Source: Verrucomicrobiia bacterium (lineage in GTDB: Bacteria > Verrucomicrobiota > Verrucomicrobiia > Limisphaerales > UBA11358). Taken from it: DNA of 64,000 nt. Made by a program: the position numbers and the translations under genes. The notes below the pieces were generated by a model. That model was not told where the DNA came from and ran no database searches. It saw only the letters and a program-made list of their open reading frames with translations. Location of the stretch: positions 1,718 to 65,717 of the forward strand of contig DASXED010000126.1 of the NCBI GenBank assembly GCA_036490295.1. Direction: 5' to 3'. Of this stretch, positions 47,571 to 62,247 are shown one piece after another. Numbering within the stretch: position 1 is the first letter of the stretch; every line of letters begins with the position of its first letter.

Positions 47571-47575
47571 CGGGT

Positions 47576-47860
47576 TCAGTCATCCAGCGTCACGAAAGTT
47601 TTTTGCGACAGCCTTTGCAAAATTTCTTTCACGTCTGCGTCAATTGCGTTTGCTTCGACTGCATATTGCGTGGCAAGCGTCTTGACAATTTCAGCAACCA
47701 TGCGTTGGCCGTCGCAAAGTGCGAGCACGTCGTGCGCGGTTTTGTTCAGCACGAGCACGCCTTCGGGAAAAAGCAGCAGATGTTTTTCGCGCACGGCGTC
47801 CCATTTCAACCGCGCCTTGTCGGCGAGGCGCGGTTTGGAAATGTCGGCGATGGCGGTCAT
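47576..47860 (-). CDS. pqqD: PQQ biosynthesis peptide chaperone
   Basis: 94 aa. 'LLLFPEGVLVLNKTAHDVLALCDGQRMVAEIV'. Position between pqqC and pqqE. Confidence 0.85.
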   Translation of the reverse strand: MTAIADISKPRLADKARLKWDAVREKHLLLFPEGVLVLNKTAHDVLALCDGQRMVAEIVKTLATQYAVEANAIDADVKEILQRLSQKTFVTLDD

Positions 47861-47861
47861 T

Positions 47862-48590
47862 TTATTTTGCCGGAGTCAAAACATACGCGAGGTGCATGGC
47901 GTCGAGCATGGCCCAGAGCAATTCGCATTTGAATTTCAACGCCGCCACGGCTTGTTCCTGCAATTCGCGGCTGCGGCAGCGTTCCACCACCAAGCGCAAA
48001 GTAAAATCCGTGTCGCGCGGCGCTTGCGTCAATCGTCCGCGAAAATAGCGCAGGCCTTCTTCTTTCACCCACGGATAATGTTGCTCGAACGCGGCGATGC
48101 GTCTGGCCATCAGCGACGGCGCAAATAATTCCGTGAGCGACGAAGCCATCGCGATGATCCACGGTTGCGCGCGGCAGAAATTGACATACGCATCCACGGC
48201 GTAACGGACGCCCGGCAGCAAATGCGTTTGCGCGAGCAATTCTTCGCGCGCCAGCCCGACGGCTTCGCCCAGCCGCAGCCATTTTTCGATGCCGCCGATT
48301 TCGGCGTCCGTGCCGTCGTGATCCAAAATGCGGTGAATCCATTCGCGCCGGATTTCGCGTTCGAGACAATTTGAAAGAATCGCCGCGTCCTTGATCGGAA
48401 TTTGCGCCTGATAATAAAAACGGTTGGCCACCCAGCCTTGAAGTTGAAACCGATTTAATTTGCCTTCGTTCATCAAGACGTGAAACGGATGCTTGTCGTG
48501 GTAAGTTTGATCGCCAACGGCGCGAAGGCGCGCAGTAAATTCTTCTGGCGGCCAGATTGAATCGCCGGAAATATTCCCGGAATTTTTCAT
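47862..48590 (-). CDS. pqqC: Pyrroloquinoline-quinone synthase
   Basis: '[32 protein letters not shown]' and full-length PqqC-like sequence. The overlapping 286-aa ORF in another frame is rejected. Confidence 0.95.
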
Positions 48591-49459
48591 GGGCGAATGT
48601 CCATTCCGTCGCGGGAAATTTCCACGCCCGCTCGCTCGACCATTTTTCGTTCGCGCGAGTTTTTTTGCAAAATTGGATTTGTATTGTTGATATGAGTGTA
48701 AATTTTACGCGGAACATTCAAGCTGCGCAACCATTCCAGGCTGCCGCCTGCGCCGTCAATTGGAACATGGCCCATCTCGCGCGCCGAGCGTTTGGACAGG
48801 CCGGGTGAAATCATTTCGCGCTCTGACCAAAATGTGCCGTCCACCAGCAGGCAGTCGCAGTCCTCAATGAAATCATTCACTGCCTTGTTGATCGCAGGCA
48901 GGCCGGGAAGATAAACAAAACTCTTGCGATTTGCTTCAAGCCGGAGGCCGACGACTTCGCCGCGTCGCACCGGACAGCGGGAATATGGTGGTGCTTTTTT
49001 GGTTTTCAATTCCAGCGCTGAAATGCGAATCCCCGCAATCTGAACCGGAAAAGTTGAATGACGAATCCGGCAATACTTTTCCAAAGTCGGCAGCAATGGA
49101 AACTGGCGGGTCAGTAAATTTTTAACCGCGCCTGTGCAAATCAATCGCAAGGATTTTTGCTCGCGCAACGAAAGAAGCCCGGCGACGTGATCCATTTCTC
49201 CGTCGGTCAAAATCACGGCCTGAACCGCGCTGCCGCGCAGTTTTCCGCCATGTTGCGTGAGTGATGGAAACGTGGCGAACTGAAAAACCAAATCCGGCGA
49301 GGCGTTGAGCAGCAGCCAATTTTTACCGTCACTGGAAACAGCCGCTGAAGATTGAGTCAGGAAATTTCCGCTCTTGCGGGCGGCACGGCAATTTTGACAG
49401 TTACAATTCCATTGCGGAACGCCGCCGCCCGCCGCAGAACCAAGCACTCGAATTTGCAC
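48587..49459 (-). CDS. pqqB: PQQ biosynthesis protein B (metallo-beta-lactamase fold)
   Basis: '[22 protein letters not shown]' N-terminus, '[13 protein letters not shown]'. 4-nt overlap with pqqC. Confidence 0.9.
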
Positions 49460-49517
49460 GGCTGCTAAAGAAGTCGGCTTTGAATTGCGCCGCAGTTTCT
49501 TTCAGCGGCTGCGATCC

Positions 49518-49595
49518 TTATTTGCCGGCGTTCACATAGGCCGTGACTTCCATGCTCAAGCTGATTTCTTCAAATTCAGGTTTGATCCAGTTCAT
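49518..49595 (-). CDS. pqqA: PQQ precursor peptide (25 aa; not in the ORF track)
   Basis: My own translation gives MNWIKPEFEEISLSMEVTAYVNAGK*. It has the conserved W near the N-terminus and the E-X3-Y core (EVTAY). It lies 58 nt upstream of pqqB. Confidence 0.85.
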   Translation of the reverse strand: MNWIKPEFEEISLSMEVTAYVNAGK

Positions 49596-49701: not shown

Positions 49702-50778
49702 ATGCGCGTGCAATCTTTGGATTTTCTGCGGACTTTGGTCAACACCCCAAGCCCGACCGGATTTGAAACCCGCGGCCAGCGGGTCTGGCTCGATTACGTC
49801 AAATCATTTGCCGGCGAAACTTTTTCCGACACCTACGGAAACTGCGTCGCCGTGCTGAACAAGGGCGGCTCGCCACGATTGATGCTCGCCGCGCACGCCG
49901 ATGAAATCGCCATGACGGTCAATTACATTGACGACGCGGGATTTGTTTATGTGCGCAAAATGGGCGGCGTGGATGCGTCCATCATGCGCGCGCAACGCGT
50001 GGTCATCCACTCGCGGCGCGGCGAGGTCAAGGGCGTGGTCGCAAACATCGCGCCGCATTTGACGCGCGAGAATGACAAGGAACCCAAGCCGCCGAAAATT
50101 CACGAACTGTTTTTGGACATCGGCGCGGCCAGCCGCAAGGAAGCGGAAAAACTCATTCAGATTGGCGATCCGATCACGCTCGACAGTGAATTTGCCGTGC
50201 TGCGAAATGAGCAGGTCGTGGCGCGCGCGCTCGACAATCGCGTCGGCACTTTCGCCGTGGCCGAGGCGTTGCGGCTGTTGAAAGAATCTGGAAAAAAACT
50301 GCACGCGGAAATTTGCGCCGTCTCAAACGTGCAGGAAGAAGTCGGATTGATGGGTGTGCGGCAGATCGCCTATTCGCTCAAGCCTGATATTGCGCTGATC
50401 GTGGACGTGACGCACGCGACGGATTGCCCGACGATCAGCAAGCCGCAACATGGCGACGTGAAAATCGGCGGCGGCCCGGCGATCACCCACGGCGGCTGCA
50501 ACCAGGCGGAAGTCGTCGCGCGGATCGAGCAGGTGGCGAAGGCGAAAAAAATTCCGCTGCAACACGAGGCTGTCTCGACTTCAAGCGGCACGGATGCCAG
50601 CGCGGTTTATTGGACTCGCGGCGGCATCGCCAGCGCGCTGATCGGCCTGCCGTGCCGTTATATGCACTCGCCGGTGGAAATGGCCAGCCTGAAGGATTTG
50701 GAAAAAATCCCCGAATTGCTGTCCGGCTTCGCGCAGTCCTTGAAGACGGGCGAACAATTCAAGGCGAACATTATTTGA
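49702..50778 (+). CDS. M42-family metallopeptidase (glutamyl aminopeptidase / endoglucanase-like)
   Basis: 'LRTLVNTPSPTGFE', 'MLAAHADEIA', 'ALDNRVG', 'SNVQEEVGLMG'. 358 aa. Confidence 0.85.
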   Translation: MRVQSLDFLRTLVNTPSPTGFETRGQRVWLDYVKSFAGETFSDTYGNCVAVLNKGGSPRLMLAAHADEIAMTVNYIDDAGFVYVRKMGGVDASIMRAQRVVIHSRRGEVKGVVANIAPHLTRENDKEPKPPKIHELFLDIGAASRKEAEKLIQIGDPITLDSEFAVLRNEQVVARALDNRVGTFAVAEALRLLKESGKKLHAEICAVSNVQEEVGLMGVRQIAYSLKPDIALIVDVTHATDCPTISKPQHGDVKIGGGPAITHGGCNQAEVVARIEQVAKAKKIPLQHEAVSTSSGTDASAVYWTRGGIASALIGLPCRYMHSPVEMASLKDLEKIPELLSGFAQSLKTGEQFKANII

Positions 50779-50822: not shown

Positions 50823-51509
50823 ATGCAAAAGCCAAGCCTGCTCCAAATCAGTTTTTGCGTTTCGATTTTGTTTCACGTTGTTTTGTTGGGCGCGCTTGGG
50901 GTTTTTGGATTTGGCGCGAGCAAGCCTGCGCTTCAACAGGAAGACAATCTTGTCACGCTGACTTTGGTTGCCGCGCCGGATGAACCTGTCGCGCCCGCGC
51001 CGGTTGTCAAAGTTGTCGCGCCGGCAATTGTCCAACCATTGCCGGTGGAAAAAATTATTCCTGTCGAACCAATCAAACAACCAGTGCCGGAAATAAAACC
51101 AATAATTCCAATTCCGCAGCCAGTTCAAGTTGTCCTCGTCGCGAAGCCGGTTTCGAAAACGGAATCTCAAGGCGACGCGAGTTCGGCCAAGCCGGGAACG
51201 GATGCCATCACCGTGCAAGCGCAGCCGGACGTGGAGGCAAAACCGAATTACCTGAAAAATCCAGAGCCGGTTTATCCAGAATTGGCGCGACGCCGCCATC
51301 AGGAAGGTTTGGTTTTGCTGGCGGTGAAAATAACGGCGCAAGGCCGCGCCGGACGCGTCGAAATAAAAAAATCCTCCGGGTTTTCGCTGCTCGACAACGC
51401 CGCCGTTGAAGCCGTGCGCGACTGGGAATTTCAACCCGCCAGGATCGGCTCGCTCGCGCTTGAATCGGAAATTGAAGTGCCAGTGCGTTTTGAATTGAAA
51501 TCGCAATAA
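50823..51509 (+). CDS. TonB-family energy transducer
   Basis: N-terminal anchor, a Pro-rich spacer ('PVPEIKPIIPIPQPV'), and the C-terminal TonB domain 'PEPVYPELARRRHQEGLVLLAVKITAQGRAGRVEIKKSSGFSLLDNAAVEAVRDWEFQPA'. Confidence 0.85.
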   Translation: MQKPSLLQISFCVSILFHVVLLGALGVFGFGASKPALQQEDNLVTLTLVAAPDEPVAPAPVVKVVAPAIVQPLPVEKIIPVEPIKQPVPEIKPIIPIPQPVQVVLVAKPVSKTESQGDASSAKPGTDAITVQAQPDVEAKPNYLKNPEPVYPELARRRHQEGLVLLAVKITAQGRAGRVEIKKSSGFSLLDNAAVEAVRDWEFQPARIGSLALESEIEVPVRFELKSQ

Positions 51510-51613
51510 ATCGCAATCCGCCGACAATTTTTAGCAATTCACCGTTAGCAGTCGTTGGAACAGTTTTGCTAGTTTGTCAGGGTTTCCGCATTTCCCGCAT
51601 AACCTGCGTAATT

Positions 51614-53785
51614 ATGAAGGCCAGATTTGCATTTCAACAACTTGCCGCGTTAATCGTCGTGCAGAGCCTGATTACCATCGCGCACGCGCAATCCACCAAC
51701 CCTCCGCCCGCAAAGATTGCGAGCACGAACGCGATGACAACGCTTCCTGAAATTACCGTGGTCGGCCAGCCGGTGCCGGATTCGCTCACTTCGCCATCCG
51801 CCGAAAAAGCAGCCGGGCAAAACAAGGAAATCCCCGGAGGCTTCACGGTCAAAACGGCTGATGAAATGAAAAAAGGGCGCACGTCAAATTTCATGGATTT
51901 GCTTCAGGACGTGCCCGGCCTGTTCATGCAAAGCGAAAATGGCGTGGAAATTTCCAAGGTTTCCATTCGCGGTTCGGGCATTGAATCGGACGACGAACCG
52001 CTGGGCGTGGAATTTCTGCTCGACGGAATCAGTTTTGACCAGGGCGACGGCGAGACGATCATTGAAGACTTTGACGTGAGCACGCTGAAATACGCGGAGG
52101 TTTATCGCGGCGCGGATGCTTTCAAATACGGTTCGTTGACGATGGGCGGCGCGATCAATCTCGTGCCGTTCACGGGTTACGATGCCCCGCCGTATCAAAT
52201 CCAGATGCAAGGCGGCAGTTACGGTTTCGTGCGCGGCGAGGCCAGCGCCGCCGGCGTTGACGGGCCGGTTGATTATTATGCCTCGGTGTCGGGACGTTAT
52301 CGCGACGGCTATCGCGCGCACAGCCAGGAGAACACCGAGCTTTTATTCGCGGACTTGGGATATAAAATCAACGACAACCTTGAAAACCGTTTTTACCTGA
52401 CGGTGGATCAGGAGAATCGCCAACTGCCCGGCGGATTGACGCAATCGCAAATGCAGGCCGATCCGCAGCAGGCCGATCCGCTGGCCGCTCCGCAGGATTA
52501 CAGCAAGCAATGGTATTATATGCGGCTCGCCGACAAAATCAGCTACGAAAAAGACGGCCACGAACTGGACGCCTCGATTTATTGGTGGCATCGCGAGTTG
52601 TTGGAGAAAGGTTTTTTTGACCCGAGCGATTATGAACAGGGCATCCAGAACTATCATGCGGACGATGGAGGTATCAACTTGAATTCCGTCACCCACGGCG
52701 AACTTTTTGGGCAGCAAAACATTCTCACAGTGGGCTTCAGCCCTGCGTTTGAAACCGAGCAGGATCACAATTATGCAAATAATGGCGGTCAAGAAGGCAT
52801 GACCATCGCCAAGGATCTTGAACTGGCGGTCAATGTGCCGCTGTATTTGGAAAACCAGCATTATCTCACGGAAAAGCTTTCGTTGCTGACCGGCGTTCAG
52901 GCGATTTATGTGGTGCGCCATTTTTATGACTACTTCAACAATACTTTGGACGGCGACCAATCCCACAAAAATGTTTATCTCGGTTTGGATCCAAAAATCG
53001 GGTTGCTTTACGAAATCACTGATGACAGCCAGCTCTTCGTTAATTTCAGCCGAACCTTTCAGCCGCCTTCATTCGACAACATGGTTGATTTTGACGATGA
53101 CAACGATCCCGGCGGCAGCCTCGCTTATACACCTCTGGCGCCGCAAAGCGCCTGGACAATCGAACTCGGCACGCGCGGCAAACAGGGACGTTTTGACTGG
53201 GATTTGGCGCTTTACCATTCCTGGGTCCACGACGAACTGCAGGACCTTTTCGATGATGTGGGACAAGACCGTGGTGATGTCAATGTCGCCCATTCTTACC
53301 ATCAGGGCATTGAAGCCGGCCTCGGCGTCGAATTGTGGAACTCAAAAAAAGTCGGCGACGAAACCGGACAATCGCTGAAATTAAACCAGACTTACACGCT
53401 CAACGATTTTCATTTCGTGAACGATCCGGTCTACGGCGACAATCGGCTGGCCGCAATTCCCGTCCACGTTTATGAGGCGGACTTGATGTATGAAGCGCCG
53501 TGCGGTTTCTACGCCGGGCCGAATGTCCAATGCAATCTTTCAAGCTATCCGGTTGACCAGGCAAACACGCTTTACGCCGGCGCTTACGCGCTGCTTGGAT
53601 TCAAAATCGGTTATGCCACCGACTGGGGAAAATCAAAAATTTCAGTTTTTCTCGAAGCGAAAAATTTGACGGACGAAAATTACGCCGCCGCAGTTGACCC
53701 GATTGGAGACGGCGACGCCACTTCGCAAGTTTTTCACCCGGGCGACGGACGCTCCTTTTACGGCGGCGTGACGTGGAGATGCTGA
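51614..53785 (+). CDS. TonB-dependent outer-membrane receptor
   Basis: Signal peptide, TonB-box-like 'LPEITVVG', plug motifs ('LLQDVPGLFMQS','IRGSG'), and a roughly 600-aa beta-barrel region. Start at MKARFAF (ATG at 51614). Confidence 0.9.
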   Translation: MKARFAFQQLAALIVVQSLITIAHAQSTNPPPAKIASTNAMTTLPEITVVGQPVPDSLTSPSAEKAAGQNKEIPGGFTVKTADEMKKGRTSNFMDLLQDVPGLFMQSENGVEISKVSIRGSGIESDDEPLGVEFLLDGISFDQGDGETIIEDFDVSTLKYAEVYRGADAFKYGSLTMGGAINLVPFTGYDAPPYQIQMQGGSYGFVRGEASAAGVDGPVDYYASVSGRYRDGYRAHSQENTELLFADLGYKINDNLENRFYLTVDQENRQLPGGLTQSQMQADPQQADPLAAPQDYSKQWYYMRLADKISYEKDGHELDASIYWWHRELLEKGFFDPSDYEQGIQNYHADDGGINLNSVTHGELFGQQNILTVGFSPAFETEQDHNYANNGGQEGMTIAKDLELAVNVPLYLENQHYLTEKLSLLTGVQAIYVVRHFYDYFNNTLDGDQSHKNVYLGLDPKIGLLYEITDDSQLFVNFSRTFQPPSFDNMVDFDDDNDPGGSLAYTPLAPQSAWTIELGTRGKQGRFDWDLALYHSWVHDELQDLFDDVGQDRGDVNVAHSYHQGIEAGLGVELWNSKKVGDETGQSLKLNQTYTLNDFHFVNDPVYGDNRLAAIPVHVYEADLMYEAPCGFYAGPNVQCNLSSYPVDQANTLYAGAYALLGFKIGYATDWGKSKISVFLEAKNLTDENYAAAVDPIGDGDATSQVFHPGDGRSFYGGVTWRC

Positions 53786-53791
53786 AAACTT

Positions 53792-54883
53792 TTACTTCAC
53801 GTCCGGCACGGCGACGACGCCCCACGGACTGCCGGGCGATTTGACGCGGGCGACTTCCTTTTCCGTCGCGAGGTCAACCACCGAGACATCATCCGACGGG
53901 CCGTTGGCGGCGAACAGATATTTTCCATCCGGCGAAAAGCAGATTCCCCACGGACGCTTGCCGACCGGAATCGTGTTCAGCACTTCGTAAGTGTTCGCGT
54001 CCACGACGACGACCGTGCCGCCGCGCCCGGTGCTGGCATAGACTTTTTTTCCGTCCGGCGAAACCAGCACGCATTGCGGGCGCGAACCTTTCGGCAGCGT
54101 GATGACTTTCAAAAGTTTCTGGTTCACCGTGTCAATCACGTTCAATTCGCCTACCGATTCCGACGGGACAAACGCGCGCGAACCGTCCGGCAAAAAAGCG
54201 ATGCTGCGCGGGCGCGGATGAACCACGATGTGGCCGATGATTTTGTAAGTTTCCGCGTCAATGGCGAAAACATCGCCGCCGGTTTCGCAGGTGATGTAGA
54301 AAACTTTTCCGTCGGGGCGGACGCCCGCGCCCTCGGGTTCGCGGGTGACGGGAATGAACGTCAGATTTTTTCCGGTCTCTGCGTCCAGGACGGTTGCGGC
54401 GCCAACGTCCTCATTGGAGATATAAATGCGCTTGCCATCCTTGCTGACGGCGAACTGTTCCGGGTCGGAGCCGACTGGGATTTTCCGCAGGAATTTTCTT
54501 TGAGCGACGTCCACGATGCCGAGACCGTCGGCGGCCTTGTCCGATTTCGCGTTGTCGTCGTCATCGTCGTCGTGGCCTTTTGCAAAAATCGGATTGCCGT
54601 TCGCGTCAAGTGTCGGCGGCGGTTCAATCGGCGTGCCGCTCAATGCGACATAAACCGTTTTGCCATCAGGGCTGGCATGGATGCCGCGCGGCCTTTTGCC
54701 GGCGGGAATGGTCGCGGTGACTTTGAAGTCGGCGCCGTTGATGACGGTGATGGTGCCGGAATGTTCGTTGGAGACAAAAATCTGGTAGCCGCCGCCCGTC
54801 TGGCTTTTGGCGGGGGCAGCCCACAAAAAGAGCGCGATGCAAAAAAATGTTGCCGGAAGAATCTGCCGAAAATGGATTTTCAT
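53792..54883 (-). CDS. YVTN-type seven-bladed beta-propeller protein (PQQ-associated beta-propeller-like)
   Basis: Repeated 'G..P.G...SPDGK.vYv' blades. There is an unusual Asp run 'GHDDDDDDN'. It resembles the family I recall as the 'PQQ-dependent catabolism-associated beta-propeller protein'. Confidence 0.75.
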   Translation of the reverse strand: MKIHFRQILPATFFCIALFLWAAPAKSQTGGGYQIFVSNEHSGTITVINGADFKVTATIPAGKRPRGIHASPDGKTVYVALSGTPIEPPPTLDANGNPIFAKGHDDDDDDNAKSDKAADGLGIVDVAQRKFLRKIPVGSDPEQFAVSKDGKRIYISNEDVGAATVLDAETGKNLTFIPVTREPEGAGVRPDGKVFYITCETGGDVFAIDAETYKIIGHIVVHPRPRSIAFLPDGSRAFVPSESVGELNVIDTVNQKLLKVITLPKGSRPQCVLVSPDGKKVYASTGRGGTVVVVDANTYEVLNTIPVGKRPWGICFSPDGKYLFAANGPSDDVSVVDLATEKEVARVKSPGSPWGVVAVPDVK

Positions 54884-55006: not shown

Positions 55007-55200
55007 GCCAGTGACCAACAGAGGCATAATTAAATGCTCAAACCGGCTTCCGAACACGATTGTGATTGTAAGCCGGGCGGCAAATTACTGGTTAAAATTT
55101 CATCGTGATTCAAGCGATTGTTTTTCAAAAATTGCCCGGCGATTCGTGTGACGCGAAACGGGAACGCACGTCCGTGCTGGATCGTGGCTTTCGGAAGGTG

Positions 55201-58200
55201 ATGAAAATCAAGTCCAGTTTCCTGCCTGTCCTTGCCGCAATCTTTGCCGCCAGTGTCAACCTCCATGCCGCCAGCGCCACTTGGAACGGCACGGCGGATT
55301 CGACTTGGGCGAACATTGCGAACTGGAGCGCGTCGCCGGTTCCGGGCTATACCGACACCGCCACGTTCAACAACGCAGGCGATGGCCGCACAACCATCTC
55401 CCTGGGTTCTGGCGTGCAGGTTGAAAACATCATCTTCAACACGGCAAATGGGGCGGCTTATACGATTGGTTCGGGAGCGGCCGGAAGCCAGACATTGAAC
55501 ATGAATGGCTCGGGCGAGTTCTCCGTGAACTCCACCGTCGTCAACAATGAGTTGTTCAATGCCAATCTCATCTTGAGTGCCGCCAACGGCGCCCGGACGC
55601 TGGCCTTTACCAACAACAGCACCGCCGCCGGCCAGAACCTGACCTTTGCCGGCGGGATGACCACCACCAACACCGGCACGAAAACGGTGGCGATCGGCGG
55701 CAATGGCAACACCACTATCAGCGGCAATATCACTGACGGTTCGGGACAACTGGCCTTGACCAAGAACGGCGCCGGCACGCTGACCTTGAGCGGCGTGGCG
55801 AACAATTACAGCGGCGCAACGATTGTCAATGCCGGCACGCTGGCGGTTGCAAGCATGGGTGGCAACACCGCAGCCCTGACGGTGGGCAACTTGGCGGGCA
55901 GTCCTGCCATCATGGACATTTTGACGGGAGCAAATGTCACCTACAACACTTTGGCGATTGGCGAAAATGCGACCGCTCCGGGCGCGGTGTTTCAAAGCGG
56001 CGGAACATTCACACTGGCTGACGCTGCGAACATAGCGGATTTCCGGATTGGCGATGGCACTTCGGGGTATGGTTACTACCAGCTTTCCGGCGGCGCATTG
56101 AACGCGAACGAAGTCGGCGTGGGCGGCGGCAATGGCGGCAACGCCACCGTGGGCGTCATGGACATCACCGGCGGCACATTCAACGACGCCGGCTGGATTA
56201 CCGTTGGCCGCGGCGGCACAACCAGTTCCGGCGTCCTGAATGTTTCCGGGAGCGGTTCAATTGTGTGTGCAGGCACGGTGGGCGGTTCGCACATCTCCTT
56301 CAACTGGGGCGGAACGGCGGGTGAAATTTCGGTGATTAATATCTTCAACGGCGGCGCAATTTACGGGCCGGCCAGCGCAACCTATGTGCTTGATTTGGCT
56401 GCGGCCAACACTGCGGGGACAATGGGCGTCGTCAATCTCGGCGGCAACGGCACGCTGGCCGTTGGCGGCGTTGTTCCGTCGAATCCAAACTCAACGTCTT
56501 TGCTTGATTTCAACGGCGGCACGCTGACGGCGACGATCAACAATGCCAACTTCCTGACGAGTGCGAATATTGATGGAGTCTACATCTACCCCGGCGGGGC
56601 GACAATCAACGATGGAGGTTTTAACATCACTGGCAGCGTCCCGTTGCAATCACCCGCAGGTTATGGCGTCAGTTCCATTGCAATGGCGGATGGCGGTTCG
56701 GGCTATGTCGGCGTGCCGCTGGTGGAAATCACCGGCGGCAGCGGCGTCGGCGCAACGGCGTCGGCGCAAGTCAATTTTGCGAGCGGAATCGTCACCAACA
56801 TTTTAATCACCAATCCGGGCAGCGGTTATGCCGGCGGCGACATTCTTGCCGTCACCTTCATCGGCGGCGGCGGCAACGGCGCTGTCGCCAACACTCCGGT
56901 CCTGGCCGCGAACAGCAGCGGTGGTTTGATTAAAACAGGCGCTGGCACATTGACTCTTTCCGGTGCGAACACTTACACCGGCGGCACAACGGTCAGCGGC
57001 GGCACACTGGCTTTGGACTTGGGCGGTTCACTTGCCAGCACAAACATCAACGTGAACAGCGGGGCGACGTTGGACGTGTCCGGCATCAGCTTTGCGTTGG
57101 GCGGAAATCAAAGTTTGTCCGGCAGCGGCACAATCACGGGATCGGTGAATGCGGTTTCCGGTTCAAAAATTTACGCGGGGACGGACGGCGGGTTCGGGAC
57201 GAACACTTTCAACAACAATCTGACCTTCGTTCCGGGCGCGTCCTGCTATTTTGACTTGGGCAGCACGGCCAGCGGTGCGAACGATGAGATCATCTTGAAT
57301 GGCGCGAACAGCGTCCTGACTTGCGGTGGCGCGAGCATCGGCATCAAGTGTGGCGCGACTTTGGATCAGACGAATGATTATACGCTCTTCAACCTGACCG
57401 GCGGATCAGCCGGCATCGCGGGCAGTTTCAATGCCACGCCGGTCTGGACGGGAACGACGCCGGCCAATGCCGGCGCCTTTTCCATCGTGACCGTGGGCAA
57501 CAAGGTCATCCTCCACTATTCCACCGGCGCCACGAATCTTCCGGCGGTGACGAATCTCGCCGCGTCAGCCGTTGCGTCCACGACCGCGACGTTGAACGGC
57601 CAGATGCTTTCGAACGGCGGACAATTTCCAACCGTCAAATTCTATTACGGCACGACTGATGGCGGAACAAATCCTGCGGCGTGGACGACGAATGTGTCGC
57701 TGGGTTTTCAAACCGGTTCATTTGCAGCGGCGGTTTCCAACCTGACTGCCAACACAACATATTATTTCGCAGCCGTCGCCACGAATTTGGCGGGCGCGGC
57801 CTGGGCCACGCCGTCGAGGTCGTTCACCACGCTGTCGCCGAATTTGGCGGTGGTGACGAACTTGCCGGCTTCAAATGTGCAGGGCAGTTCGGCAATCCTG
57901 AATGGCCGGGTGCTTGCGATTGGCAGCCAGACGCCGTCCGTCACTTTATATTACGGCACGAGCAATGGCGGCACGAACGCCGCCGCGTGGGCGAACAATA
58001 TTTATATCGGCCAGCAAAGCGGAAGTTATGCCATCACCGTCACCGGCCTGGCCACGAACACGGCATATTACTACACCGCCGCCGCCGCAAATCCCGATGG
58101 CACGGCGTGGGCGCAATCCGCGCAAACATTCACCACGTTGCCCACGGCTCCGGTGGTGTCGGTGCTGACCTATCACTATGACAATTTCCGCACCGGCGCG

Positions 58201-61200
58201 GACACCAACGAAACATTGCTGACACCGGCAACCGTCAACACCAACAACTTCGGGCTTTTGATTAAATATGTGACGGACGGGTATGTTTATACCGAGCCGT
58301 TGTATGTCCCAAGCGTGACCGTCCCAGGCCAGGGCACGCATAACATGGTGATCGTGGCGACCGAGCATGACAGTATTTATGCTTTCGATGCGGACAGCAA
58401 TGCGGGGACCAATGGCGGAGTGTTGTGGCATACCAATTTCGGCGTTTCGGCCATAAGCGCCAATCAAAATGAATTTGGCGCGCGATATTGCGGAGATTGT
58501 TATCCCGACATCGTCCCGGAAGTTGGCATCACCGGCACGCCGGTCATTGATCCCGCTACGGGGACAATCTATGTGGACGTGTTCACCCACGAAGGGGCGA
58601 ATTTTTATCATCGCATCCACGCCCTGAACATCACCAACGGAATGGAGCAACCCTACAGCCCGGTCGTCGTCAGCGGTTCAGTTCCGGGAACCGGCCGGGA
58701 CAGTTCTGGCGGCGTGATGACTTTCAACCCCACACAAAACAACCAGCGTCCCGCGCTGACGCTTGCCGGTGGAATTTTATACGTCGCCTACGCCGGTTAT
58801 GCGGACACCGATCCGTATCATGGCTGGGTCATCGGTTACAACGCCGCCAATCTCGCGCCGTTGACCAATTATGTTTTCAACAGCACGCCGAACGCGACGA
58901 CGGCGGCCTTTGGCGCCAACGCCGCTGAAGGCGGGGTTTGGATGGGTGGCAACGGATTATGCGTGGATGCAAACACCAACCTTTACTTTGAAACGGGCAA
59001 CGGAAGTTTCAGCGCGAACACCAACGGCGGGGATTATGCGGACAGTTTCATCAAACTTTCCACCACCAACAAGCTGGCTCTGTCCGACTATTTCACACCC
59101 TACAATCAACTCACGCTCGCAAACGACGACTTGGATCTCGCCGCGTGCGGCCCGGTGTTGCTGCCTGACTCGGTCGGGAGCACAAATCATCCGCATCTGC
59201 TTGTCGGAACCGGCAAGAGCGGGACGCTTTATCTTTTGGATCGCGACAACATGGGACGTTACAATGGCACCGATGGCGTCAACGGGAATGACAGCCAGAT
59301 CGTGCAATCCGTTATCGGCGCGACCGCCAGCACTTGGAGTTCACCCGCTTATTTTAACAACCAGATTTATCTGCAGGCGAGCAGCGCCGCGATGAAGGCG
59401 TTCACGATCACCAACGGACACATCGCCACCACGCCCGCCTCCACCGCCACGGCATCGGTTGGCACATACAACGGCGGGCCGGTCGTTTCCGCCAACGGCA
59501 CGAACAACGGGATTGTCTGGGTGCTGGATGGCGCCAGCGGCACCGGCACCGGGGTCTTGTATGCCTGCAACGCCACCAATCTCGCGCAGCAATTGTATAA
59601 CAGCAGCCAGCTTTCGCGCGACATTCCCGGCAGCGGGATCAAAATGACCACGCCCACGGTGGCCAACGGGAAGGTCTATGTCGGGGCGCAATATGCGCTG
59701 GCGGTCTACGGACTGACAACATTCCTGGCGACGCCGGTGATCACGCCCAACGGCGGGAGCTATGCCAATTCGGTGACGGTGACATTGTCGGACGCGACGC
59801 CTGGCACCGCCATCTACTACACTTTGGACGGGACCGTGCCCGGCACCGGTTCCACGCTTTACACTGGTCCGTTCGCGGTGACGACCACGCTGAATCTGCA
59901 AGCCGTCGCCGTCAAATCCGGCGCGGTCAACAGCGGCGTGGCCTCGGCGTCCTTCATCAACACCGCCGCCGCCGGGAATGGCGCTGGATTGCTGGGACAA
60001 TACTGGACGAACACCACCAGCACGGCCTTCACCAATGCATCGTTCAACACTCCGGCAACATTGACACGCACGGACGCCGTCGTGAATTTCAACTGGAGTT
60101 CAACCGGCCCGGCAACCACCATCGGCCAGAGTAATTTCACCGCCCGCTGGACCGGCGCGGTGCAGCCGCAATACAACGAGACCTACACCTTCACGACCAT
60201 CGCTGACGACGGCGTGCGCCTGTGGGTCAACGGCCGGTTGCTGGTGGATGACTGGACAACGCATTCATCTGCGGCCACCAACAGCGGCTCCATCACGCTC
60301 AACGCGCAGCAACTCTACAACATCCAGATGGATTACTTTCAAAGCAATGGCGATGCCGTGGCTCAATTGCTGTGGAGCAGTCCGTCCACCGCGCAGTCCA
60401 TCATCCCGCAAACTCAACTTTATGTTTTCACCAATCCGCCACCGACAATTGTCATGGCGAGTCCCGCCGCCGGTTCGACTTACACCGCCACTGCCAGCGT
60501 GACCATCGGCGCGAATGCCGACGCGCCCTACAACCCGGTCGGCAAAGTGGATTTTTACGCCAATGGCAATTTGCTTGGCTCATTGAGCAACAGCATTGAT
60601 GCGCCGCTTTATACGCTCACGGCGACTGGCTTGACCAACGGTGGTTATGCCCTGACCGCTGTCGCCACTGATGGCAGCGGCTTGAGCAGCACTTCAGCAC
60701 CGGTCAATATCATTGTCATCGCCGGCAGCGGACTTCCCTACGGCCTGACGAACAACGGCACGGTGACGGCATTTCTGAATATGCCCGCAGCCTACACCGG
60801 CACACTTCCGCCGCTGCTCTCCGGCACCGGCGCGTTTGCTGACACTCCCAACCGCACGCCGGCCGGCGGACTGATTCCGTATGCGCCCAACACGCCGTTG
60901 TGGTCGGATGCGGCGGTCAAGAGCCGTTACATGGCGTTGCCCAACAATGGCGGAACGATCACGCCTGACGAACAGATCGGATTTCTTCCGACAAACTCAT
61001 GGACGTTCCCGGCGGGAACCGTGTTCGTCAAAAATTTTGATCTCGTCGTGAATGAAACCAACGCGGGCGTTCCGCTGCGGCGACTGGAGACCCGGCTGCT
61101 GGTGCGCGACATCAACGGCGCGGTCTATGGCGTGACCTACAAATGGCGCGCGGACAACAGCGACGCCGACCTGCTTGATTCCAGTTTGAATGAAGACATT

Positions 61201-62247
61201 CTCATCACCAACGCCACCGGCGTGCGTACGCAGACGTGGTATTATCCAAGCCCGCAGGATTGCCTGACGTGCCACACACCCGTGGCCGGTTATGTGCTGG
61301 GCGTCAACGCGCGGCAGCTCAACGGCAACTTGAATTACCCCGCGACCAGCGTCACGGACAACCAGTTGCGCACGCTGAACCGGCTTGGGCTTTTCAATCC
61401 CGCCATCAATGAAGCGAACATCGCCAATTACGAGCGCCTCTCCGCGCTCACCAATTTGAGCGCGTCGCTCGAAGAACGCGCCCGCTCTTATCTGGACGCC
61501 AACTGCGCGCAGTGCCACCAGCCGGGCAACTCCATTGAGGCAAACTTTGACGCGCGCTACGACACGCCGCTGGCGCAGCAGAACATCACAAATTATCCGG
61601 CGCAGCATAATCTGGGAATTGACGGTGCCTGCGTCGTCAAGGCAAAGGACATCTGGCGTTCCGTGCTTTTGTATCGGATCAACACCAACGATCCATCCAT
61701 CAAAATGCCGCCGCTGGCGCGCAATGTCATTGACACCAACGCCGTGCAGGTCTTCACCGACTGGATCAACAGCCTGCCCGGCACGCCCGTGCTCGCGCCG
61801 CCGGCCATCACGCCGAACGGCGGCGGTTACATCGCCTCGGTTCACGTCACGTTGCAGTCGCCCGACACGAACGCGGCGATCTACTACACGCTTGACGGCT
61901 CGCTGCCCACGACCAATTCGTTCCTGTATTCCGGCGCGTTCAATTTGTTCACCAACGCCACCGTTTCGGCGAACGCCTTTGAAACCGACTACAACAACAG
62001 CATCGCCGCCACCGCGCTCTTCAACGTGCAGCCGCTGTATTTCACCTCGATGGGTTTTCTGGCGAACCGGCAGTTCCAACTCGGCTTCGCCGGCGTGGCC
62101 GGCAGCAATTATGTGCTGCAGGCGACGACCAATTTCTCGATCTGGACGCCCATCAGCACCAACACGGCGGTGACAAACCTGTTCAACCTGGTTGATCCCA
62201 ATGCGGCGAATTTTCCATATCGCTTCTATCGCGTCCTGCAACAATGA
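55201..62247 (+). CDS. Giant multidomain secreted surface protein (2348 aa)
   Basis: Signal peptide 'MKIKSSFLPVLAAIFAASVNLHA'. Autotransporter-associated beta-strand repeats ('GAGTLTLSGANTYTGGTTVSGGTL') to about 57500. Two tandem FN3-like units (about 57530-58140). A PQQ-like beta-propeller ('YHYDNFRTGAD..', about 58160-59720). A chitobiase-C-like domain (about 59730-59960). A PA14 domain ('GLLGQYW...DDGVRLWVNG', about 59985-60420). An Ig-like domain. A di-heme module (CLTCH, CAQCH) followed by a second chitobiase-C-like domain (about 60800-62030). Confidence 0.85.
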   Translation: MKIKSSFLPVLAAIFAASVNLHAASATWNGTADSTWANIANWSASPVPGYTDTATFNNAGDGRTTISLGSGVQVENIIFNTANGAAYTIGSGAAGSQTLNMNGSGEFSVNSTVVNNELFNANLILSAANGARTLAFTNNSTAAGQNLTFAGGMTTTNTGTKTVAIGGNGNTTISGNITDGSGQLALTKNGAGTLTLSGVANNYSGATIVNAGTLAVASMGGNTAALTVGNLAGSPAIMDILTGANVTYNTLAIGENATAPGAVFQSGGTFTLADAANIADFRIGDGTSGYGYYQLSGGALNANEVGVGGGNGGNATVGVMDITGGTFNDAGWITVGRGGTTSSGVLNVSGSGSIVCAGTVGGSHISFNWGGTAGEISVINIFNGGAIYGPASATYVLDLAAANTAGTMGVVNLGGNGTLAVGGVVPSNPNSTSLLDFNGGTLTATINNANFLTSANIDGVYIYPGGATINDGGFNITGSVPLQSPAGYGVSSIAMADGGSGYVGVPLVEITGGSGVGATASAQVNFASGIVTNILITNPGSGYAGGDILAVTFIGGGGNGAVANTPVLAANSSGGLIKTGAGTLTLSGANTYTGGTTVSGGTLALDLGGSLASTNINVNSGATLDVSGISFALGGNQSLSGSGTITGSVNAVSGSKIYAGTDGGFGTNTFNNNLTFVPGASCYFDLGSTASGANDEIILNGANSVLTCGGASIGIKCGATLDQTNDYTLFNLTGGSAGIAGSFNATPVWTGTTPANAGAFSIVTVGNKVILHYSTGATNLPAVTNLAASAVASTTATLNGQMLSNGGQFPTVKFYYGTTDGGTNPAAWTTNVSLGFQTGSFAAAVSNLTANTTYYFAAVATNLAGAAWATPSRSFTTLSPNLAVVTNLPASNVQGSSAILNGRVLAIGSQTPSVTLYYGTSNGGTNAAAWANNIYIGQQSGSYAITVTGLATNTAYYYTAAAANPDGTAWAQSAQTFTTLPTAPVVSVLTYHYDNFRTGADTNETLLTPATVNTNNFGLLIKYVTDGYVYTEPLYVPSVTVPGQGTHNMVIVATEHDSIYAFDADSNAGTNGGVLWHTNFGVSAISANQNEFGARYCGDCYPDIVPEVGITGTPVIDPATGTIYVDVFTHEGANFYHRIHALNITNGMEQPYSPVVVSGSVPGTGRDSSGGVMTFNPTQNNQRPALTLAGGILYVAYAGYADTDPYHGWVIGYNAANLAPLTNYVFNSTPNATTAAFGANAAEGGVWMGGNGLCVDANTNLYFETGNGSFSANTNGGDYADSFIKLSTTNKLALSDYFTPYNQLTLANDDLDLAACGPVLLPDSVGSTNHPHLLVGTGKSGTLYLLDRDNMGRYNGTDGVNGNDSQIVQSVIGATASTWSSPAYFNNQIYLQASSAAMKAFTITNGHIATTPASTATASVGTYNGGPVVSANGTNNGIVWVLDGASGTGTGVLYACNATNLAQQLYNSSQLSRDIPGSGIKMTTPTVANGKVYVGAQYALAVYGLTTFLATPVITPNGGSYANSVTVTLSDATPGTAIYYTLDGTVPGTGSTLYTGPFAVTTTLNLQAVAVKSGAVNSGVASASFINTAAAGNGAGLLGQYWTNTTSTAFTNASFNTPATLTRTDAVVNFNWSSTGPATTIGQSNFTARWTGAVQPQYNETYTFTTIADDGVRLWVNGRLLVDDWTTHSSAATNSGSITLNAQQLYNIQMDYFQSNGDAVAQLLWSSPSTAQSIIPQTQLYVFTNPPPTIVMASPAAGSTYTATASVTIGANADAPYNPVGKVDFYANGNLLGSLSNSIDAPLYTLTATGLTNGGYALTAVATDGSGLSSTSAPVNIIVIAGSGLPYGLTNNGTVTAFLNMPAAYTGTLPPLLSGTGAFADTPNRTPAGGLIPYAPNTPLWSDAAVKSRYMALPNNGGTITPDEQIGFLPTNSWTFPAGTVFVKNFDLVVNETNAGVPLRRLETRLLVRDINGAVYGVTYKWRADNSDADLLDSSLNEDILITNATGVRTQTWYYPSPQDCLTCHTPVAGYVLGVNARQLNGNLNYPATSVTDNQLRTLNRLGLFNPAINEANIANYERLSALTNLSASLEERARSYLDANCAQCHQPGNSIEANFDARYDTPLAQQNITNYPAQHNLGIDGACVVKAKDIWRSVLLYRINTNDPSIKMPPLARNVIDTNAVQVFTDWINSLPGTPVLAPPAITPNGGGYIASVHVTLQSPDTNAAIYYTLDGSLPTTNSFLYSGAFNLFTNATVSANAFETDYNNSIAATALFNVQPLYFTSMGFLANRQFQLGFAGVAGSNYVLQATTNFSIWTPISTNTAVTNLFNLVDPNAANFPYRFYRVLQQ

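Follow-up and report, generated by a model that had tools for sequence, protein, structure and literature searches.

Type II quinohaemoprotein ADHs, such as Comamonas testosteroni qhEDH (PDB 1KB0) and ADH IIB and IIG, are secreted single chains in which an eight-bladed PQQ propeller is followed, on a short linker, by a single class I cytochrome c. Lanthanide-dependent XoxF and ExaF/PedH, together with the membrane-anchored Gcd, carry Asp-x-Asp at the catalytic-base position. In MxaF, Glu177 and Asn261 are metal ligands, Asp303 is the catalytic Asp and Arg331 binds PQQ, and XoxF has an extra Asp (ligand roles from PMC8028316). In fungi, the AA12 PQQ pyranose dehydrogenase CcPDH combines a cytochrome b, a PQQ domain and a CBM1 (PMC4332668, PMC5960967). 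BamB, a cofactor-less lipoprotein of ~390 aa, shares the eight-bladed PQQ-like fold. The SO2930 family of dihaem cytochromes c (TIGR03806) has no known function; by its TIGRFAMs description, members may adjoin a TIGR03805 parallel beta-helix protein. Our literature search found SO2930 merely listed in one paper and nothing on TIGR03806.

We analysed a 64,000-nucleotide stretch of DNA (the window) from a soil Verrucomicrobium that encodes a secreted protein of 2348 residues, here called the giant protein, which probably represents a novel, self-wired type of oxidising enzyme and not an adhesin. A single ORF is uninterrupted from 55105 to 62247, and the ATG chosen at 55201 gives 2348 aa. A scan for promoters and terminators was uninformative because its counts equalled those expected from shuffled sequence (11 versus 8.8 and 38 versus 34.4, respectively). 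The gene and its domains, in order, are as follows.

55201-62247, + strand: gene of the multidomain protein (2348 aa), with its stop codon; single ORF, GGAAGG before the ATG, signal peptide
55201-55278, + strand: Sec-type signal peptide, aa 1-26 (MKIKSSFLPVLAAIFAASVNLHAASA), assigned by eye from the sequence, with cleavage read between MKIKSSFLPVLAAIFAASVNLHA and AS
55279-57537, + strand: Gly/Thr/Asn-rich N-terminal region, a variable extension in which the PATR (autotransporter-associated beta-strand) repeat occurs twice, at aa ~186-216 and aa 576-605 (PF12951/TIGR02601)
57538-58140, + strand: two tandem FN3-like units, aa 780-980; weak matches, two ~100-aa copies seen in the sequence
58141-59730, + strand: putative catalytic domain with PQQ and metal, aa 981-1510, an eight-bladed propeller from an unclassified family (AF2, Foldseek, hhalign)
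59746-59943, + strand: first CHB_HEX_C / Fn3_assoc domain, aa 1516-1581 (PF13290, PF13287)
60019-60414, + strand: PA14 domain of carbohydrate-binding type, aa 1607-1738 (PF07691, E 2e-25)
60442-60660, + strand: Big_7 Ig-like domain, aa 1748-1820 (PF17957, E 4e-10)
60808-61776, + strand: SO2930-like dihaem cytochrome c module, a beta-sandwich and then a helical cytochrome part (TIGR03806, E 1e-60)
61261-61275, + strand: CXXCH 1 (CLTCH), aa 2021-2025, conserved motif
61504-61518, + strand: CXXCH 2 (CAQCH), aa 2102-2106, weak PSCyt1 match
61705-61707, + strand: Met2169 (KMPP), likely axial ligand of the CXXCH 2 haem
61813-62004, + strand: second CHB_HEX_C / Fn3_assoc domain, aa 2205-2268 (PF13290, E 1.5e-16)
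62020-62244, + strand: unclassified 75-aa C-terminal domain ending RFYRVLQQ, without a family match at E<=10

The original prediction, a 2348-aa protein with most of these domains, was borne out. The ORF is intact, and the domains were identified with Pfam and NCBIfam, the FN3-like units weakly (Pur_ac_phosph_N, 30.7 bits; fn3, E 0.0045) and the propeller by structure prediction and profile-profile alignment. The second CHB_HEX_C domain and the 75-aa tail, both after the haem module, are additions to it. The W...FYR tail also closes standalone propellers. By tblastn, a similar N-terminal region occurs in only 10 of 82 related ORFs. A classical (type Va) autotransporter was ruled out: PATR repeats are present, no C-terminal beta-barrel translocator family was matched, and the C-terminus consists of a CHB_HEX_C domain and the unclassified 75-aa domain.

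The architecture is no isolated case; it proved to be a multi-copy family. Among the complete ORFs with the close dihaem module in GTDB genomes (Verrucomicrobia subdivision 3), 61 of 65 also hold the propeller, often with several copies per genome. The propeller precedes the dihaem module by a fixed distance of 2.55 or 3.7 kb, and each of these relatives, like all 82 related ORFs, has exactly two CXXCH motifs. This retention in one ORF, with fixed spacing and two CXXCH motifs, argues that the fusion is under selection. Of 146 representatives of propeller clusters, 14 also have the cytochrome core. We ruled out an artefact of assembly or annotation, since the fusion is intact in 61 independent genomes; split ORFs were found only in nanopore-derived MAGs in which other genes were broken as well.

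The two-CXXCH module was present as predicted. Its 323 aa matched TIGR03806 from end to end (model positions 2-314 of 314) with both CXXCH motifs, at 205.7 bits against a cutoff of 313.3; unlike SO2930-family proteins, it sits in a giant protein after a propeller. In 39 aligned sequences both Cys and the His of CXXCH 2 and the Met-Pro of KMPP were invariant, as was the first Cys of CXXCH 1, whose second Cys and His were at least 90% conserved. The AF2 model of the module (pLDDT 88) had no fold match in the PDB (Foldseek E >=0.14, probability <0.2), and a PDB sequence search was also non-significant. This lack of a structural precedent counts against a redox reading of the giant protein. A paralogous module, overlooked in the earlier analysis, lies at the far end of the pqq operon.

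45101-46480, + strand: 459-aa paralogue with an SO2930-like dihaem module, a CHB_HEX_C domain and a lipobox-like N-terminus (TIGR03806, E 7e-69)

This gene is convergent with pqqE. Its dihaem module covers the whole TIGR03806 model (232.5 bits, cutoff 313.3), has CXXCH motifs at 206 and 286, and is 53% identical to that of the giant protein; many loci hold both types of gene. Such a standalone form would suit a reading in which the dihaem module is itself catalytic. In the beta-sandwich, a five-coordinate haem of P460-like or c'-beta-like type would act on a small molecule (H2O2, NO or hydroxylamine) beside a His/Met electron-transfer haem, and the propeller and sugar-binding domains would position the module or feed it electrons. 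In keeping with this, haem 1 directly follows the beta-sandwich, no distal His or Met is conserved except the KMPP Met, and the module faintly resembles cytochrome P460 and beta-sheet cytochrome c'. However, these structural likenesses fall within the non-significant Foldseek range given above, and a catalytic dihaem module would leave the propeller's conserved catalytic-type residues and its link to pqq unaccounted for. We regard this reading as very unlikely, although it is compatible with a PQQ-dependent oxidoreductase and does not exclude one.

For the predicted PQQ-like propeller of about 520 aa, the fold stood, but no sequence model recognised the domain. As a single sequence, aa 981-1510 had no match in Pfam (E<=10), NCBIfam (E<=0.01) or PDB sequences. 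It was undetected by the curated PQQ-dehydrogenase models TIGR03075, TIGR03074 and PF01011, by the BamB models TIGR03300 and PF13360 and by GSDH-family domain models (Pfam, NCBIfam), and PDB HMM searches with close (A1) and broad (A3) family profiles gave chance matches only. Distant members of the family, which comprises 14,142 50%-cluster representatives, showed sub-threshold matches to PF01011 or PQQ_2. Assignment as a propeller rests on structure prediction and profile-profile alignment. The AF2 model (pLDDT 79, pTM 0.86) yielded 496 Foldseek matches at E<=1e-3. Eight-bladed PQQ-ADH, BamB and tetrathionate hydrolase headed them, and type II and III quinohaemoprotein ADHs, PedH and methanol dehydrogenases were included; BamB was the top match (TM 0.70-0.76, normalised to BamB). 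In hhalign, the family aligned with four PQQ-ADH/XoxF5 sequences plus E. coli Gcd over 435 co-linear columns (Prob 86%, E 5e-6). The four ADH/XoxF5 sequences by themselves scored 40.6, compared with at most 19.6 for column-shuffled and 33.7 for block-shuffled controls of this template. A single BamB sequence gave E 7.5e-4, an unequal contest in which the PQQ dehydrogenases scored higher because a five-sequence profile was set against one sequence. With single-sequence templates BamB scored 32.6-36.0, level with Gcd and ADH, and one run gave scores of 18-33. The propeller aligns over its full length with PQQ dehydrogenases, but profile comparison alone does not separate these enzymes cleanly from BamB, and we therefore do not claim on score alone that it groups with them. 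By predicted structure and profile alignment, the propeller is homologous to PQQ dehydrogenases and has the PQQ/BamB-class eight-bladed fold.

The prominence of BamB, which leads the Foldseek matches and equals single PQQ dehydrogenases in hhalign, fits a reading in which the propeller has no cofactor and serves as a BamB-like or lectin-like binding module in a giant surface adhesin or S-layer-type protein. The nearness of pqq would then be inherited synteny without function, the cassette serving other enzymes. Surface and binding proteins typically carry PATR, FN3, Ig, PA14 and CHB_HEX_C domains, and 'empty' quinoprotein families are already in NCBIfam (TIGR04528, seen here as a weak match). 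In contrast to BamB, the propeller of the giant protein is 530 aa long and internal, with long loops, conserved acidic, Asn and Lys residues and a link to pqq. Alignment with PQQ dehydrogenases placed five near-invariant residues at candidate metal-ligand, catalytic Asp-x-Asp and PQQ-binding Lys/Arg positions, the Glu equivalent being alignment-dependent.

58804-58806, + strand: Asp1202 (propeller D222), candidate metal ligand, MxaF Glu177 equivalent by alignment with the ADH Glu in one hhalign run
58999-59001, + strand: Asn1267 (N287, ETGNG motif), candidate metal ligand, MxaF Asn261 equivalent, aligned with the GTGNP Asn
59128-59136, + strand: Asp1310-Leu-Asp1312 (D330-x-D332), candidate catalytic base and extra metal-binding Asp, from the Gcd alignment
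59215-59217, + strand: Lys1339 (K359, GKxG motif), equivalent of MxaF Arg331 and Gcd Lys493 in all hhalign runs

D222 paired with the ADH Glu in one hhalign run and not in the other, and N287 with the GTGNP Asn in both. D330-x-D332 matched E. coli Gcd D466-M-D468 exactly; in the ADH-profile alignment the WDxD motif was offset by 5 residues from D330/D332. The active-site roles of Gcd D466 and K493 are ones that we presume, having found no paper for them. Conservation among 156 family members was 152 for D222, 153 for N287, 145 for D330, 154 for D332 and 156 for K359. The residue spacings (43, 2 and 29) resemble those of MxaF/XoxF (42, 2 and 27-28). The Cys-Cys pair of ADH/MDH enzymes is missing, as the family has no conserved Cys and the ADH CC pairs with Tyr-Pro. 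To our knowledge, Gcd-type enzymes also lack vicinal Cys-Cys. Where the original prediction had allowed for a BamB-like propeller without PQQ residues, we found a full-length PQQ-dehydrogenase alignment with D, N, DxD and K at candidate metal-ligand and catalytic positions. All five residues are kept among members down to 23-30% pairwise identity, which a cofactor-less binding module leaves unexplained.

The genes around the pqq operon were assigned as follows.

44565-45104, + strand: 179-aa secreted protein, conserved partner, with a 4-nt overlap with the 459-aa gene
46464-49595, - strand: pqqABCDE operon; B, C and E exceed the cutoffs of their NCBIfam equivalogs, D that of TIGR03859
49518-49595, - strand: pqqA, peptide MNWIKPEFEEISLSMEVTAYVNAGK with an E-x3-Y motif
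48587-49459, - strand: pqqB, NCBIfam equivalog
47862-48590, - strand: pqqC, NCBIfam equivalog
47576-47860, - strand: pqqD, TIGR03859
46464-47570, - strand: pqqE, NCBIfam equivalog
49702-50778, + strand: M42 peptidase, a companion of the pqq cassette (PF05343, E 7e-84)
50823-51509, + strand: TonB (PF03544)
51566-53785, + strand: TonB-dependent receptor (TBDR), distantly PqqU-like (PF00593 and Plug)
53792-54883, - strand: seven-bladed YVTN propeller, conserved beside the giant gene (TIGR03866)

The giant gene had been placed about 6 kb from pqqABCDE, behind an M42 peptidase, a TonB/TBDR pair and a YVTN propeller of the PQQ-catabolism type. As predicted, the operon is complete, the distance is 5.6 kb and every intervening gene was confirmed, although the YVTN propeller scores below cutoff with its best match, TIGR03866 (PQQ-dependent catabolism-associated; 253 bits versus 287). 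PqqU is the best NCBIfam match of the TBDR (163 bits, cutoff 1200). No other PQQ enzyme was found among the ORFs scanned in the window. Eight loci hold the M42 peptidase and pqq together. In 29 of 83 loci the YVTN propeller gene neighbours the fusion gene, and in two loci it lies beside pqq and a standalone propeller. Homologues of the 179-aa protein, which has no Pfam or NCBIfam match, adjoin propeller-dihaem genes in about 45 of the 83.

Association with pqq held for the propeller family but is weaker for the exact fused architecture, which is near pqq in only about 6 of 80 loci; close relatives have the same gene cluster minus the pqq-M42 cassette, and six orthologous clusters lack pqq. By comparison, among the 22 pqq loci whose sequence continues for at least 2.5 kb past pqqE, 10 have a propeller-family member next to pqqE, usually within 600 bp. 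These members represent at least five lineages with mutual identity of at most 43%. One, in Candidatus Udaeobacter GCA_036499375.1, is 200 bp from pqqE, and another, which carries CBM6/CBM35, directly follows pqqE on the same strand in one of the eight M42-pqq loci. A literature search on Udaeobacter and PQQ enzymes found nothing. The absence of pqq near most fusion loci favours an adhesin. However, an adhesin leaves unexplained both the pqq adjacency in at least five divergent lineages, including the same-strand gene after pqqE, and the invariant dihaem cytochrome that 61 of 65 relatives carry; it is not obvious what a c-type cytochrome would do in such a protein. We therefore consider the adhesin reading rather unlikely.

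We favour, with a probability of roughly 60%, a Sec-exported multidomain quinohaemoprotein-like oxidoreductase in which a PQQ propeller is wired to a dihaem module; most likely it would be a dehydrogenase acting on glycans or sugars. The PQQ-dehydrogenase alignment with its D/N/DxD/K residues, the conserved CXXCH pair and the family-level pqq adjacency uphold this predicted redox reading, and the PQQ-catabolism-type YVTN neighbour also favours it, whereas pqq linkage of the fusion itself is a minority state. The silence of the curated PQQ-dehydrogenase models, the missing Cys-Cys pair, the equal single-sequence scores of BamB, the alignment-dependent WDxD and Glu placements and the few fusion loci near pqq count against it.

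Domain order, fold class, homology, conserved residues, the recurring fusion and the gene neighbourhoods are observed; cofactor, chemistry, substrate, electron path and location we infer as follows. Outside the cytoplasm, the propeller (aa 981-1510) would bind PQQ, supplied by the neighbouring pqqABCDE cassette, and a Ca2+ or lanthanide ion, with Asp1202, Asn1267 and Asp1312 as proposed metal ligands. A hydroxyl-bearing substrate would be oxidised, Asp1310 serving as the base while Lys1339 polarises the quinone. The likeliest substrate is a sugar or glycan, which the PA14, CHB_HEX_C and Ig domains would hold. Electrons from PQQH2 would pass singly to the SO2930-type dihaem module of the same chain and leave it for an external acceptor, for which the co-located 459-aa dihaem lipoprotein paralogue is the most plausible candidate, before reaching the respiratory chain.

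In this design the giant protein resembles type II quinohaemoprotein ADHs, as one secreted chain with an eight-bladed PQQ-class propeller and a C-terminal c-type haem domain as would-be electron acceptor; these ADHs are Foldseek matches of its propeller, and the Asn and Lys/Arg active-site positions align. It differs in that the propeller falls outside the curated PQQ-dehydrogenase models, lacks Cys-Cys and has Asp at the Glu-ligand site. The single cytochrome c is replaced by a dihaem module with a beta-sandwich, and a 980-aa PATR/FN3 extension precedes the propeller. CHB_HEX_C, PA14 and Ig domains of ~330 aa separate propeller and haems, a spacer that counts against a redox reading. With XoxF, ExaF/PedH and Gcd the propeller shares Asp-x-Asp at the catalytic-base position, aligned exactly in Gcd, and the XoxF-like ligand spacing, but identity is <20%, TIGR03075 and TIGR03074 do not match, and the Gcd-type membrane anchor is absent. 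The TBDR in the pqq cassette here is PqqU-like, a type for which lanthanide import has been proposed. CcPDH offers a functional analogy only: it shares the logic of a secreted PQQ domain with a built-in cytochrome, a carbohydrate-binding module and sugars as substrates, whereas AA12 is six-bladed and sGDH-like, sequence-unrelated, eukaryotic and equipped with haem b, and the giant protein has eight-bladed matches and covalent haem c motifs.

A broader proposal, which we hold only tentatively, is that the propeller founds a very large unrecognised clade of PQQ enzymes. In abundant soil Verrucomicrobia, including Candidatus Udaeobacter, these would act outside the cytoplasm as oxidases of polysaccharides or sugars in the broad sense of oxidising enzymes. 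The clade may be of lanthanide type, a possibility raised by the Asp-x-Asp motif and the lanthanide-TBDT-like receptor in the pqq cassette. Propeller-PA14-dihaem giants would then be self-wired bacterial counterparts of fungal cellobiose and pyranose dehydrogenases. A novel dihaem domain, with its first haem in a beta-sandwich, could let them pass electrons to acceptors in the respiratory chain or outside the cell.

If the propeller uses PQQ, the census of PQQ enzymes misses a clade of thousands of protein clusters that is invisible to curated models and concentrated in hard-to-culture soil Verrucomicrobia. The active-site variant, with Asp replacing the Glu ligand and no Cys-Cys pair, would offer a case for studying metal selectivity, and the uncharacterised SO2930 dihaem family would gain its first functional context. 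The pqq operons of these Verrucomicrobia would acquire a likely purpose, as the Candidatus Udaeobacter gene near pqqE suggests, and the fungal cytochrome-tethered sugar dehydrogenases, which drive the oxidative breakdown of polysaccharides, may have a bacterial analogue in the giant protein.

The giant gene near pqqABCDE occupies a single unbroken open reading frame (ORF) on the plus strand (55105-62247, from an ORF scan of the window). Its ATG at 55201 is preceded by a Shine-Dalgarno-like element (GGAAGG) and followed by a typical Sec signal peptide, in agreement with the 2348-aa product of the original prediction. The domains named there (PATR, FN3-like, CHB_HEX_C, PA14, Ig-like and two CXXCH motifs) were confirmed with Pfam and NCBIfam, the FN3-like units weakly; a second CHB_HEX_C domain was missing from that list.

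Domains of the giant protein (Pfam/NCBIfam matches unless stated)
750-aa Gly/Thr/Asn-rich N-terminal region: includes two PATR repeats
Two FN3-like units in tandem: weak matches only
aa 981-1510: propeller
aa 1516-1581: first CHB_HEX_C
aa 1607-1738: PA14
aa 1748-1820: Big_7
aa 2021 and 2102: CLTCH and CAQCH of the dihaem module
After the haem module: second CHB_HEX_C
62020-62244: C-terminal 75-aa tail without a family match, ending RFYRVLQQ

Because many 600-aa standalone propellers end in the same W...FYR(L/V) tail, the 75-aa tail may be a domain for sorting or anchoring that is specific to the lineage.

The propeller-dihaem fusion is a family and not a one-off. GTDB species genomes were scanned with an alignment of the cytochrome module, which yielded 335 loci. 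The best 80 of the 335 could all be assigned to Verrucomicrobia subdivision 3 (Limisphaerales/Pedosphaera type), and one genome often had two or three of them. Of 65 complete stop-to-stop ORFs, 61 contained both propeller and module, with the propeller 2.55 or 3.7 kb upstream; the four ORFs without a propeller look frameshifted, three of them in examined long-read MAGs with other split genes and the fourth at L009 (L numbers label related loci in other genomes or contigs). The related ORFs encode 1220-2899 aa, with exactly two CXXCH motifs in each, and share an ordered core of propeller, CHB_HEX_C, PA14, Big_7, dihaem module, CHB_HEX_C and tail. The PATR/FN3 extension is variable, as a tblastn match to the N-terminal region of the window's protein was found in 10 of 82 ORFs. 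Among propeller cluster representatives, the cytochrome core was present in 14 of 146.

The haem module matched NCBIfam TIGR03806 (SO2930 family diheme c-type cytochrome) end to end (E = 1e-60), its 205.7 bits lying below the cutoff of 313.3. In the module alignment, the first Cys of motif 1 was invariant and its second Cys and His were at least 90% conserved; the three residues of motif 2 that bind haem were invariant, as was Met2169 (KMPP). The haem 1 region (60808-61275) also contains an invariant YGVTYKW motif. In an AF2 model (pLDDT 88), the first CXXCH ends a beta-sandwich and the second lies in the helical part after it. A PDB fold search with this model gave no significant match. No distal His or Met for haem 1 was conserved across the module family, and haem 1 may be five-coordinate. 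This lack of a distal ligand, the position of haem 1 directly after the beta-sandwich, and weak, non-significant structural resemblances to cytochrome P460 and beta-sheet cytochrome c' would fit a decidedly improbable alternative in which the beta-sandwich haem is itself catalytic.

The propeller belongs to a large family (more than 7,800 matches among 90% clusters; 14,142 50%-cluster representatives at E ≤ 1e-3) that is annotated at best as 'pyrrolo-quinoline quinone' or 'PQQ-like domain'. Residues 981-1510 had no match in Pfam, NCBIfam or PDB sequences even at E ≤ 10, and HMMs built from close and broad family alignments found no solved structure in the PDB. Thus, no standard model confirms the earlier 'PQQ-like' label, but it gained support from structure comparison and from profile alignment to PQQ dehydrogenases. 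An AF2 model (pLDDT 79, pTM 0.86) matched eight-bladed propellers in Foldseek, including BamB, type II/III quinohaemoprotein alcohol dehydrogenases (ADHs; 1KB0, 8GY2), PedH, methanol dehydrogenases and tetrathionate hydrolase. As all of these matches were only 12-16% identical, the fold alone cannot tell BamB from PQQ dehydrogenases and the others.

Profile comparisons were made with hhalign against four authentic PQQ dehydrogenases of the methanol/ethanol family, one of them an XoxF5 (plasmid records), and against E. coli Gcd and BamB. A 156-sequence family alignment matched the four ADHs with a score of 40.6 (E = 3e-4) over 272 co-linear columns, compared with scores of at most 19.6 in 20 column shuffles of the ADH template and at most 33.7, over at most 85 columns, in 20 shuffles of 12-column blocks. 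With Gcd added to the ADHs, the match extended over both proteins end to end (435 columns, Prob 86%, E = 5e-6). An independent 26-sequence family alignment agreed (Prob 86%, E = 5.4e-6, score 54.9). With single-sequence templates, BamB, which was compared in this form and not as a family profile, a point that we count against a dehydrogenase reading, scored equal to Gcd or ADH. This result would fit a propeller that serves as a cofactor-less binding module of an adhesin, a reading that we regard as unlikely. Given the equal scores, it is the residue pattern, not the overall score, that argues for a PQQ site.

Asp466, Asp468 and Lys493 of Gcd are taken here to be active-site residues; we found no paper on the roles of Gcd residues. 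Ligand roles of the MxaF/XoxF residues have been described (PMC8028316).

Residue correspondences (propeller-domain numbering; add 980 for the full protein)
N287 (ETGNG): ADH Asn ligand (GTGNP; MxaF Asn261), aligned in every run
K359 (GKxG): ADH Arg (MxaF Arg331) and Gcd Lys493, aligned in every run
D330-x-D332: Gcd Asp466-Met-Asp468, exact in the Gcd alignment and displaced by five residues from WDxD in the ADH profile
D222: ADH Glu ligand (MxaF Glu177) in one alignment, unaligned in the other

The family spacings (Asn to Asp, 43 residues; Asp to Asp, 2; Asp to Lys, 29) match those of MxaF/XoxF (42, 2 and 27-28). Conservation in the 156-member alignment, among the highest in the family, was 152 for D222, 153 for N287, 145 for D330, 154 for D332, and 156 for both K359 and W267. 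The five candidate site residues (D222, N287, D330, D332 and K359) were also among only 32 invariant columns of the 26-sequence alignment, which extends down to 27% identity with the window propeller. The Cys-Cys pair of ADH/MDH is missing from the family. Asn replaces the candidate catalytic Asp D330 (codon 59128-59130) in 9 of 156 members; these may be paralogues that have lost activity or changed function.

The pqq, M42, TonB, receptor and YVTN neighbourhood described earlier was borne out by Pfam and NCBIfam matches, to which we add two genes beyond pqqE.

Other genes of the window
19764-20864, 22703-23995 and 25891-27228: type II secretion system (T2SS) genes for GspK-like protein, GspF and GspE-like ATPase
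44565-45104: 179-aa secreted protein, overlapping the 5' end of the next gene
45101-46480, convergent with pqqE: 459-aa protein with SO2930-type dihaem module and CHB_HEX_C, absent from the original prediction
46464-49595, minus: pqqA-E, NCBIfam equivalogs above cutoff
49702-50778: M42 aminopeptidase, after pqq
50823-53785: TonB and TonB-dependent receptor (best NCBIfam match PqqU, 163 bits versus a cutoff of 1200)
53792-54883, minus: seven-bladed YVTN propeller (best match TIGR03866, 'PQQ-dependent catabolism-associated beta-propeller', 253 bits versus a cutoff of 287)

The PqqA peptide is MNWIKPEFEEISLSMEVTAYVNAGK. Unrelated genes elsewhere in the window encode an AcrB-type RND pump and the associated membrane-fusion protein (658-4946), a 1237-aa lamin-tail and Ig-domain protein (36202-39915) and a PIN-domain toxin (42250-42639). 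The 459-aa protein has a lipobox-like N-terminus (AAIISC) and a dihaem module 53% identical to that of the giant protein, and is a conserved part of this gene cluster across many genomes. The 179-aa protein had no family match at E ≤ 10; in about 45 of 83 loci a homologue adjoins the propeller-dihaem gene, frequently starting less than 300 bp past its stop codon, and the 179-aa protein is a conserved partner of these genes. The M42 gene accompanies pqq in every Limisphaerales-type pqq locus (the window, L002, L007, L008, L065, L068, L078, L084 and L096, where M42 and pqqB share a strand, with M42 immediately upstream) and is absent from the Udaeobacter pqq locus (L170); its product could be the PqqA-processing peptidase of the Limisphaerales-type lineage. 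The TonB/receptor pair lies inside the pqq cassette only in the window, L065 and L055.

Co-occurrence with pqq, proposed earlier as a check, held for the propeller family but only rarely for the fused form. Only six distinct loci among the 80 with the fused architecture have pqq no more than 10 kb away (L002/L076, L007, L008, L065, L068 and L078). The orthologous cluster consists of the 179-aa, 459-aa dihaem, YVTN and giant genes. A pqq-M42 cassette is inserted between the dihaem and YVTN genes in the window, L002, L068 and L078; the cluster is rearranged but still linked to pqq in L007 and L008, and lacks pqq entirely in L001, L006, L011, L064, L070 and L071. In the reciprocal scan, which was the more informative, metagenome contigs were searched with the window's PqqC and loci extending at least 2.5 kb beyond pqqE were kept (n = 22). 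Ten of these contained a full-length propeller-family member, 26-56% identical to the window's and usually 80-600 bp from pqqE. The pqq-linked members represent at least five lineages, are at most 43% identical to each other and all retain D222, N287, D330, D332 and K359; none matched TIGR03075 or TIGR03074. A YVTN gene accompanies the pqq-linked propeller in L105 and L162. One pqq-linked clade of standalone propellers belongs to Candidatus Udaeobacter; GCA_036499375.1 carries its propeller gene 200 bp from pqqE in convergent orientation, together with pqqCD and pqqB. Divergent members lie directly after the pqq genes on the same strand at L096 (12168-14978; 936 aa, directly after pqqE) and L153 (5484-7937). 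One of the two, that at L096, carries CBM6/CBM35 and a Y_Y_Y domain, an observation that suggests carbohydrates as substrates of the propeller family.

What is observed for the giant protein is its composition, homology, conservation and synteny, and a quinohaemoprotein-like dehydrogenase is their most economical reading (probability about 0.6). Besides the BamB comparison, points that speak against it or that it leaves unexplained are the spacer of 330 aa that separates the haems from the propeller, the uncertain alignment of the Glu and DxD positions, and pqq linkage in only a minority of fused loci. Type II quinohaemoprotein ADHs are the closest in the way they work. The giant protein departs from them in matching none of the curated models, in lacking the Cys-Cys pair and in which type of cytochrome it carries and where. 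Fungal AA12 pyranose dehydrogenase, which combines a cytochrome, a PQQ domain and a CBM (PMC4332668, PMC5960967), is comparable in function alone. A 2026 preprint catalogues eight-bladed and six-bladed PQQ enzymes, with a custom HMM for known PQQ dehydrogenases, and the parts of it covered here contain no mention of the window's propeller family (10.64898/2026.07.10.737718). These parts also propose that PqqU-misannotated receptors beside pqq, which cluster with lanthanide importers and also occur in Verrucomicrobia, import lanthanides; the window's PqqU-like receptor and the family Asp-x-Asp motif are therefore a lanthanide lead.

For the dehydrogenase reading, we infer cofactor binding, substrate, electron path and location as follows. 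The propeller, with PQQ and a metal, would be the catalytic domain and would pass electrons to the built-in dihaem module, from which the 459-aa dihaem lipoprotein paralogue could plausibly receive them next. Haem c attachment needs the periplasm, and the T2SS exports folded cytochromes in other bacteria. To leave the periplasm, the giant protein would depend on a secretion route of the T2SS kind; T2SS genes are present in the window and have only that location in common with the giant gene. The glycan-binding domains would carry the propeller and haem assembly.
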